From positions 1 through 16,601 of the forward strand of contig JAZRWA010000051.1 of NCBI GenBank assembly GCA_045599485.1: DNA of 16,601 bases, written 5' to 3'. Made by a program: the position numbers and the translations under genes. This stretch comes from Clostridia bacterium (GTDB lineage: Bacteria > Bacillota > Clostridia > Christensenellales > Aristaeellaceae). A model generated the notes under the pieces. The model was not told where the DNA came from, searched no databases, and saw only the letters and a program-made list of their open reading frames with translations. Below are positions 14,528-15,413 of the stretch, one piece after another (within the stretch, counting starts at the first letter, position 1; each line of letters starts with the position of its first letter).

Positions 14528-14569
14528 TTGGAAACCATGCTTTTTGGCATCAAAAAGCGTGGTTTCCAA
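14528..14569. repeat. REP-like palindromic element, copy B
   Basis: ttggaaaccatgcttttt-ggcatc-aaaaagcgtggtttccaa. Same ACCAYGCTTT...AAAGCRTGGT core. The right arm encodes the last codons of the 14550..15413 gene and the loop holds its stop codon. Confidence 0.6.
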
Positions 14570-15413
14570 GGTCTTCGTTCGTCACCAGGTACACCGCCGC
14601 GGCGTGCAGCTTTTTGTAGTTCGCCTCCGTGCGGCGCATGCGGGAAAGCCCCATCTCCATGATGTCCAGACACGCGGACTTGTACTCCGTCTTGGCCATG
14701 GGATCCATAAAATAAAGGTACTCCTCATCCACCGCCACGCACGCCACATAGTGCGCGCCGCCGGTAAAGGGCGAGGACGAGGTGTTGGACAGCACCACCG
14801 CCATGGTGCCGTTGCCGATGCGGTTGACCCAGTCATCATCGGTCGGCGCGTCGATCATGGTGCAGGAAAGCCCAAAGTACGGGCAGATCTCCAGCAGCAT
14901 CTTCATGTTGGTGCCGCCGCCGTTGGACTTGGCGATGCGGTAACGGCTGCCCTTATCGTTGTTGCCGCAGGCATAGGAGCCCAGGATCAGCGGCAGATAG
15001 GTGCGCACGTCCTATTCGGTCTCAAGGGGCATGCGCTGCTTGCAGCTGCGGCAGTTCCACGGATTGACGGAGTGCGTGCACAGCGTAAAGCCGCCATCGC
15101 CCGCGTGATCGAGGATGCCGGTAATGTTTTCCCCCGCCAGCGCGGCAATGACGATGGAGGCGCTGGTGGGGCCGCAGCCGCCGTCACCGAAGATGCGATA
15201 GGTGGGGCTGTTGCGATACTCATACACCAGCTTGTACCACATCAGGTTTTTTTGCGCGTAAAGCATCACCTCGCCCACATAGGGCACGGTGACATAATGG
15301 CAGATGTTATCGCGGCTTTCCAGCTCCTTGCGGATCTGTTCCGCCCCCGAGGATGCCAGCGCCGGGGAGGATAAAAGCAGCATCGCCAGCAAAAGGGCAA
15401 GCAGGCGTTTCAT
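14550..15413 (-). CDS. Secreted papain-fold cysteine peptidase, C39-like (287 codons) with one in-frame TAG (15012-15014)
   Basis: ATG 15413 follows AAAGGAG. Signal peptide MKRLLALLLAMLLLSSPALA. Putative catalytic Cys motif GDGGCGPTSASIV lies upstream of the TAG and the His motif GGAHYVACVAVDEEYLYFMDP lies downstream, in the same frame (..PLETE*DVRTYLP..). TGA stop. Confidence 0.7.

Follow-up and report, generated by a model that had tools for sequence, protein, structure and literature searches.

In Bacteria, the stop-codon reassignments established so far concern TGA only, which is read as tryptophan in the Mycoplasmatales and some symbionts (code 4) and as glycine in the Gracilibacteria/Absconditabacteria (code 25), and a TAG code would extend this natural list. 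Among eukaryotes, the nuclear code of the peritrich ciliates (NCBI table 30) assigns both TAA and TAG to glutamate (Glu). The present study deals with a stretch of 16,601 nucleotides, hereafter called the window (positions 1 to 16,601 of the forward strand of contig JAZRWA010000051.1, assembly GCA_045599485.1), which comes from a gut bacterium that has not been cultured and whose gene content is of the Clostridia type, and more particularly with its gene for a predicted secreted cysteine peptidase (14550..15413, minus strand), the reading frame of which contains a TAG (amber) codon at 15012-15014. It is very probable, from the comparison of related sequences, that this TAG is translated and that the lineage has reassigned TAG from stop to sense throughout its genome. 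Since in-frame TAG codons occur in many unrelated genes and TAG is never found in terminal position, the peptidase gene is, as far as sequences can tell, neither broken nor specially recoded; it is the genetic code of the organism that has changed. The more complete proposal, according to which TAG is fully reassigned to Glu in a natural gut Clostridia-like lineage of ordinary genome composition, presumably with a glutamate transfer RNA (tRNA) of CUA anticodon, tRNA-Glu(CUA), and with the loss of release factor 1 (RF1), stands at about even chances.

With codes 4 and 25, the lineage studied here has in common the reassignment of a bacterial stop codon across a whole lineage and the expected loss of the matching release factor. 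It differs from them in the codon and the factor, TAG and presumably RF1 instead of TGA and RF2, and in the genomes concerned, which are of low guanine-plus-cytosine (GC) content or reduced for codes 4 and 25, whereas the contigs examined here display a GC content of 55-58% and resemble ordinary free-living gut Clostridia. The peritrich code similarly reads amber as glutamate but is eukaryotic and has reassigned TAA as well. In gut phages using code 15 (crAss-like, Lak and others), TAG specifies glutamine, Gln (PMC9523058; 10.1101/2021.08.26.457843). There as here, TAG stands for a standard amino acid throughout the coding regions, TAA and TGA serve as stops, and gene callers fragment the genes; however, the sequences considered here are those of a bacterial chromosome, the best-fitting residue is Glu, and the cell itself would be recoded, whereas the recoding of the phages is taken to be directed against a host with the standard code. 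The archaeal 'Code 34' (10.1101/2024.09.30.615893) likewise concerns a cellular prokaryote with a genome-wide sense TAG, a rare TAG codon and genes misannotated as fragments. It is archaeal, however, it relies on the pyrrolysine (Pyl) machinery and it lacks any consensus for the replaced residue, in contrast to the bacterial lineage described here, which exhibits a Glu consensus and no pyl genes in the incomplete genome available. Finally, engineered Escherichia coli strains (the C321.deltaA lineage and 'Ochre', PMC11903333) are alike in that they possess no TAG terminators and keep TAG free for a suppressor tRNA; these RF1-lacking strains are man-made, and the present lineage would be their natural equivalent.

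The peptidase gene begins with an ATG at 15413, comprises 287 sense codons when the TAG is counted among them, and ends with a TGA at 14552-14550. The TAG at 15012-15014, which corresponds to codon 134, is the only internal stop of the frame and is read here as sense, most likely as Glu. A Shine-Dalgarno sequence, AAAGGAG, occurs 7 nt ahead of the ATG, a sigma-70-like candidate promoter recognized by consensus match only (GTGACA, a 17-nt spacer and TACAAT; 15450..15478, minus strand) is located upstream of the gene, and a probable intrinsic terminator, consisting of an inverted-repeat stem followed by UUUUUU (14436..14494, minus strand), folds with an energy of -23.5 kcal/mol (z -8.3). The beginning of the gene (15351..15413, minus strand) encodes a predicted Sec signal peptide, MKRLLALLLAMLLLSSPALAS, as judged by eye from the sequence.

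An earlier reading of the nucleotide sequence, hereafter the original prediction, had recognized in this gene a secreted C39-like cysteine peptidase with an amber codon between the putative catalytic Cys and His, and the reading frame as well as the motifs bear it out. The motif GGCGPTSASIV, which contains Cys80, is encoded 5' of the TAG, and GGAHYVACVAVD..FMDP, which contains His221 and Asp237, is encoded 3' of it in the same frame. The profile search proposed at that time for the joined sequence gives a match to the Pfam family PF13529 (Peptidase_C39_2) of 29.9 bits (gathering score 24), and the stretches that match lie on either side of the TAG. Upon alignment of 50 homologues, the putative catalytic residues were identified as Gln54 (15252-15254), Cys80 (15174-15176), His221 (14751-14753) and Asp237 (14703-14705), all on the minus strand; Gln54, Cys80 and Asp237 do not vary, and 49 of the 50 sequences have His221. 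The family comprises 243 cluster representatives, retrieved by a profile search among 1.84 billion representatives, and none of its members has been characterised.

The expectation that the joined protein should model as a single papain-like fold also held. With codon 134 entered as X, the AlphaFold2 model of the joined chain consists of one compact domain, with a predicted local distance difference test score (pLDDT) of 94.3, reaching 98 near the TAG, and a predicted template modelling (pTM) score of 0.91. Foldseek matches only clan-CA cysteine peptidases, namely the calpain core, PeiR, the C39 domain of PCAT1, the 'C39-like peptidase' 3erv and papain, with probabilities of ~1.0 but template modelling scores (TM-scores) of just 0.3-0.4. 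The likeness to PF13529 and to PDB entry 3erv thus lies in the clan-CA fold and in the occurrence of Gln, Cys, His and Asp in the expected order. True C39 bacteriocin-processing peptidases form the N-terminal domain of an ATP-binding cassette (ABC) exporter and cleave double-glycine leaders; unlike them, the window peptidase is a stand-alone protein with its own predicted signal peptide and extra inserts, and no ABC exporter adjoins its gene.

Orthologues are encoded as single open reading frames (ORFs) and not as two independent genes, e.g., P0002 (281 aa) and P0031/P0032 (279 aa), and P0002 shares with the window the RluA / peptidase / glycosyltransferase neighbourhood. The second half of the gene does lack a ribosome-binding site and a signal peptide of its own, as initially remarked: a GTG occurs at 15008 without a properly spaced Shine-Dalgarno sequence, and inspection of the sequence reveals no signal peptide. 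Public gene calls nevertheless list the halves apart, as pieces of 133 aa and 152 aa (P0022 and P0024). The peptidase gene is accordingly best described as one intact ORF for a predicted secreted clan-CA cysteine peptidase. A Cys-rich insert, residues 110-150 (about 14964-15086), occurs between the catalytic Cys and His and includes the TAG; its residues C112, C121, C124 and C149, all four unchanged among the five closest sequences and partly conserved family-wide, may be engaged in disulfides or in a metal site.

The original prediction was right about the presence of the amber codon but treated it as a peculiarity of one gene, without settling what it means, and this part does not stand, in-frame TAGs being found in many unrelated genes. 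When the window genes are joined by counting only TAA and TGA as stops, a total of 6 (possibly 7) in-frame TAGs is distributed across 3-4 genes. Two of them (3191-3193 and 2486-2488) belong to an HExxH metalloprotease-like gene, distantly M6-like (1985..3547, minus strand), which is annotated elsewhere as three fragments; it gives no Pfam match, and its status as a single gene rests on its homologues, among which full-length single-chain proteins exist. Three others (11937-11939, 11733-11735 and 11505-11507) occur in a gene with three DUF6273 domains of Pfam (11211..13328, minus strand). The possible seventh TAG (5736-5738) is located in a short ORF for a phage-type regulator (5592..5834, minus strand), which may be a remnant and in which a match to phrog_36 (E 3.8e-8) crosses the TAG.

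Related contigs extend this picture. L004, the contig of a 44%-identical peptidase homologue (P0003), is chromosomal (rplI-dnaB, mnmE, luxS) and contains one in-frame TAG in each of the genes for DnaB, FecCD, an iron ABC ATPase, ExoA, PGA_cap and DUF4317, the pieces being always in the same frame; single Pfam domains run across the TAG in DUF4317 (positions 1-370) and PGA_cap (25-261). In-frame TAG thus reaches essential genes such as that of DnaB. A histidine kinase gene of L010 contains 2 in-frame TAGs, and further ones occur in the M14-like and M6-like genes of L014. Altogether, both in the group of the window (L001, L002, L008-L014) and in L004, the C39-like proteins of which are only 44% identical, the pattern of TAG is that of a sense codon and in no case that of a stop. 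Within a single species group, the peptidase gene itself exhibits, depending on the strain, a TAG at codon 26 (L001/L002), 134 (window) or 175 (L012). At each of these codons the other strains have GAG or GAA, and the remaining ORF is intact. Some TAGs recur in independent assemblies: that of L001 is identical to that of L002, and the TAG at codon 119 of the M6-like gene (M6-119) is common to the window, P0036 and P0037. The TAG at codon 37 of the M14-like gene is also conserved, being present in L014, and the proteins P0016-P0020 all begin just downstream of it.

Three observations on the distribution of these codons deserve mention in their own right. At window position 3191-3193, the codons found among relatives, CAG (inferred from the Gln of P0188), TAG (window) and TGG (L014), describe a one-step path through TAG. 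Most of the in-frame TAGs of the window fall in genes for secreted proteins, and the 21 genes of L008, which encode mostly cytoplasmic or membrane proteins, have none. At about 49%, the GC content of the triple-DUF6273 gene is markedly below that of its neighbours, from which it also differs in codon usage, and yet it contains three TAGs; it may have been horizontally acquired.

A census of stop codons was established for 69 non-redundant genes, i.e., 20,498 codons, from the window, L003, L004, L008, L010 and L014. As terminal codons, TGA occurs 38 times, TAA 31 times and TAG never; as in-frame stops, TAG occurs 16 times and both TAA and TGA are absent. With the addition of the ABC ATPase, L001/L002 and L012, the distinct in-frame TAGs amount to 19; all in-frame stops are TAG and no frameshifts occur. 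From codon usage, random nonsense mutation should give a TAG share of 50-56%, so that the probability of such a series is 0.53^19, or ~6e-6. In L039, a standard-code relative that does not differ from the lineage in GC content (55.8%) and has a 57%-identical M6-like gene, TAG ends 4 of the 16 genes with clear boundaries, as opposed to 0 of 69 in the lineage (Fisher p ~9e-4); at a TAG share of 25%, the absence of TAG terminators would have a probability of 0.75^69, or ~2e-9. A profile scan of genome contigs yielded only three distant loci with C39-like homologues (L005-L007), and a metagenome scan with the peptidase profile gave no match. Of these three loci, two, from metagenome-assembled genomes (MAGs), also look standard-code, and together with L039 they indicate that the TAG change is lineage-specific; a genuine TAG stop is present in L006.

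Purifying selection is equally strong on the two sides of the TAGs. The ratio of nonsynonymous to synonymous substitution rates (dN/dS) of the C39-like gene is about 0.22 before the TAGs and 0.15-0.23 after them, and the three segments of the M6-like gene give values of 0.13, 0.14 and 0.18 at dS 0.75-1.15. With respect to gene ends, the DUF4317 gene of L004 (11294-11302) terminates with the tandem TAG TAA, in which the TAG may be the relic of a former stop and the TAA its backup.

The residue inserted at TAG was approached by a Codetta-style likelihood over 14 TAG sites, from which the PGA_cap site, where the Pfam column may be Asp, was left out owing to a too weak PDB alignment. Glu ranks first, followed by Asp (13.1 ln units lower), Gln (15.0), Ser (15.1) and Lys (22.3); at 8 of the 14 sites, Glu comes first or close to first. 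In L004, the TAG of the ABC ATPase coincides with a conserved Glu of FhuC/HmuV and that of DnaB with a Glu of the Geobacillus DnaB, and in L010 the TAG in the HisKA domain of the histidine kinase corresponds to a Glu of WalK/VicK. In the window, codon 134 of the C39-like gene falls in a column where Glu is the family majority (E 0.46 with pseudocount; 26/50 including one substituted row) and where orthologues carry GAA or GAG; M6-119 belongs to a D/E/Q column, and codon 354 of the same gene (M6-354) is Glu in the closest homologues. No TAG stands opposite Lys or Tyr, even though AAG and TAY match GAG in frequency and, like it, need a single mutation to become TAG, which argues against a residue inserted without preference, such as pyrrolysine. 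Provided that TAG is indeed reassigned, these alignments would make Glu the probable residue, somewhat better than an even bet, and would leave minor and about equal shares to Gln and to pyrrolysine or some other residue. In the mechanism proposed, a tRNA with a CUA anticodon, charged with Glu, would decode TAG; RF1 would be lost or disabled, with RF2 terminating translation at TAA and TGA; and new TAG codons would arise freely from GAG by a G-to-T change.

Several results weigh against a lineage-wide reassignment of TAG to Glu. No tRNA with a CUA anticodon occurs in the window or in 14 related loci, representing ~150 kb of lineage sequence, and a search with Rfam returned only tRNA-Leu. L008 and L013, with 21 genes each, contain zero in-frame TAGs, TAG being a rare codon (~0.8 per 1000 codons), and L003, the contig of a 72% orthologue, has neither TAG stops nor in-frame TAGs and is uninformative. 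The 14 sites used for the likelihood are a small sample, five of them resting on few PDB homologues, and not all point to an acidic residue: two DUF6273 sites of the window show a slight preference for Gln (Q > E ≈ D > K and Q > E > K), the TAG at codon 44 of the M6-like gene of L014 (M6-44) faces Phe/Asn, those of ExoA and FecCD in L004 face Val/Ile (also Glu, Asp) and Gln/Arg/Pro, respectively, and other non-acidic counterparts are the Trp found at M6-119 in L014 and the Ser found at M6-354 in P0039. Lastly, two large screens of bacterial genomes list no such TAG code, so that either the lineage was missed or the interpretation defended here is wrong.

Among the other explanations, the reassignment of TAG to glutamine, as in phage code 15, through a tRNA-Gln(CUG) mutated to CUA, fares best and is nonetheless unlikely. 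Such a suppressor lies one anticodon mutation away and has a phage precedent (PMC9523058), CAG and TAG correspond to each other at codon 37 of the M14-like gene and at codon 26 of the C39-like gene relative to the window, Gln is the commonest residue in the two DUF6273 columns, and the FecCD TAG aligns with a Gln of HmuU. However, Gln ranks 15 ln units below Glu over the 14 sites, and conserved Glu/Asp columns are affected in the ABC ATPase, the HisKA domain, DnaB, the C39 family and M6-119. A glutamine code also predicts mainly CAG-to-TAG transitions among strains, whereas all three TAGs of the peptidase gene face GAG or GAA.

A genome-wide use of TAG for pyrrolysine, which would make the lineage a bacterial counterpart of 'Code 34', appears quite improbable. 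It would follow the sole natural precedent, among prokaryotic cells, for an all-sense TAG (10.1101/2024.09.30.615893), it could account for the assorted residues found at a minority of sites, and Pyl recoding, which gives no clean consensus, escapes Codetta-type screens, which would explain why the lineage was overlooked. Against it stand the existence of a consensus centred on Glu and the complete lack of TAGs opposite Lys or Tyr, both described above, and the fact that neither a methylamine methyltransferase gene nor a pyl gene was seen in the ~150 kb of this incomplete genome; moreover, 10.1101/2024.09.30.615893 states that the code has not been observed in bacteria.

An ambiguous TAG, at which a strong suppressor tRNA would compete with a persisting RF1 to give part read-through and part termination, is regarded as very improbable. 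Ambiguity has been proposed as a route to reassignment, and some Pyl-encoding archaea are still ambiguous (PMC12626013); TAG is still rare in the lineage, and the TAG-TAA end of DUF4317 in L004 resembles a recent backup stop. However, the contrast in TAG terminators between the lineage and L039 (0/69 vs 4/16) argues for a TAG that has ceased to terminate, and a TAG in DnaB or at codon 26 of the peptidase gene would be costly under competing termination. That the peptidase gene is a pseudogene or a segregating nonsense allele, with a TAG that terminates and leaves a dead 133-residue fragment, has next to no chance, since the restriction of the codon-134 TAG to the window strain and the two halves P0022 and P0024 of the public gene calls, which would suit it, have to be set against 19 distinct in-frame stops out of 19 being TAG with no TAA, TGA or frameshift, the TAGs in essential genes such as that of DnaB, the lack of any TAG-terminated gene among 69, a dN/dS that is not raised after the TAGs, and the conserved TAGs at M14 codon 37 and at M6-119 (window, P0036, P0037).

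Three other candidates were rejected. A gene-specific recoding signal or a selenocysteine- or Pyl-type element is ruled out by the occurrence of TAGs at unrelated positions in unrelated genes, a sequencing or assembly error by the recurrence of identical TAGs across independent samples and assemblies, and a phage or plasmid origin of the contigs by the presence of rplI, dnaB, mnmE, lgt, recX, dnaD/dnaI-like genes, MATE pumps and histidine kinases.

A lineage-wide sense TAG in a bacterium has to be viewed in the light of previous surveys. A 2026 screen of ~2.7 million prokaryotic assemblies (10.64898/2026.04.02.715157) reports known or suspected bacterial reassignments, none of them with TAG, and 10.1101/2024.09.30.615893 counts three codes in Bacteria and states that TAG is a stop codon there, apart from a small number of Pyl enzymes. 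No bacterial code assigning TAG to a standard amino acid was found in the literature searched, which left most subscription journals outside its coverage, so that a prior description is possible. If true, the reassignment of TAG would add one more bacterial genetic code to tables 11, 4 and 25 and provide a natural counterpart of RF1-free E. coli, with RF1 dispensable in nature and with a naturally evolved amber-decoding tRNA/synthetase pair on which code engineering might draw. TAG-recoded phages are seen as exploiting a mismatch with standard-code hosts, a picture that TAG-recoded hosts would alter. In public databases, the proteins of the lineage are split or truncated, the peptidase into two pieces, the M6-like protein into three and DnaB into two, which biases the quality estimates of MAGs.

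The 3' end of the peptidase gene overlaps one of three palindromes of the window reminiscent of repetitive extragenic palindromic (REP) elements, which are imperfect palindromes of 20-45 nt found in several similar copies at gene 3' ends. Copy A (14360..14403) lies just 3' of the glycosyltransferase gene, copy B (14528..14569) consists of two arms of 18 nt (14528-14545 and 14552-14569) with one mismatch and a 6-nt loop, and copy C (16265..16305) is located between the RluA-like and histidine kinase genes. All three occur at gene 3' ends, with folding energies of -24 to -42 kcal/mol; as an RNA hairpin, copy B folds with -24.5 kcal/mol when the mRNA strand is taken and with -29.5 when the opposite one is. 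The three window copies and three copies of L010 have in common the core ACCAYGCTTT-(9-10 nt)-AAAGCRTGGT, and 6 half-sites are observed as compared with 0.22 in shuffled sequence. In the window, L001, L002 and L012, the coding sequence reads six codons into the palindrome.

In this respect, the original prediction that copy B contributes the last six codons of the gene is exact, one arm reading CTT GGA AAC CAC GCT TTT (LGNHAF), and the stop codon, which it placed in the loop, is a TGA straddling the boundary between arm and loop. In L010/L011, the peptidase ends with VTRE* and a related palindrome begins 10 nt after the stop, and in L003 it ends with VSNHK*, followed by an ordinary terminator. 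These different endings support the suggestion, put forward with the original prediction, that the palindrome remodelled the C-terminus of the peptidase, as would be deduced from sequence comparison. No copies of the palindrome occur in L003, L004, L008 and L013 (about 68 kb), and no gene for a REP-associated tyrosine transposase (RAYT) was seen. The copies therefore cluster at the peptidase locus, and 'REP-like' describes a form and not a proven family membership. A scan with the palindrome pattern retrieved 24 unrelated contigs, mostly of low GC content. Every copy keeps one Y/R mismatch at the same position of the stem, which pairs as G-U on one strand but is a C-A mismatch on the other; as a result of this strand-specific mismatch, the copies have a defined orientation, and with respect to the peptidase gene this orientation is not the same in the window as in L010 (L010 2943-3438).

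Elsewhere in the window, after a tRNA-Leu(UAA) gene (4422-4506) come a perfect 19-nt hairpin and a stretch of lower GC content (45-48%), which carries a Gp49-like toxin / helix-turn-helix (HTH) antitoxin pair (4836-5484) and the phage-type regulator remnant. The whole segment, 4422-6400, resembles what is left of a mobile element that had inserted next to a tRNA gene, and in L014 the same tRNA-Leu adjoins the M14-like gene. Peptidases are unusually concentrated in the window (1985-7702 and 14550-15413), with M6-like, M14-like, M28 and C39-like members and at least three predicted signal peptides, and the coding sequences of the M6-like and M14-like genes overlap by 4 nt at 3544-3547. Finally, the MATE pump gene (window 1-1985) is >90% identical in L008/L013 and has entirely different downstream neighbours there, which points to rearrangement between close relatives.

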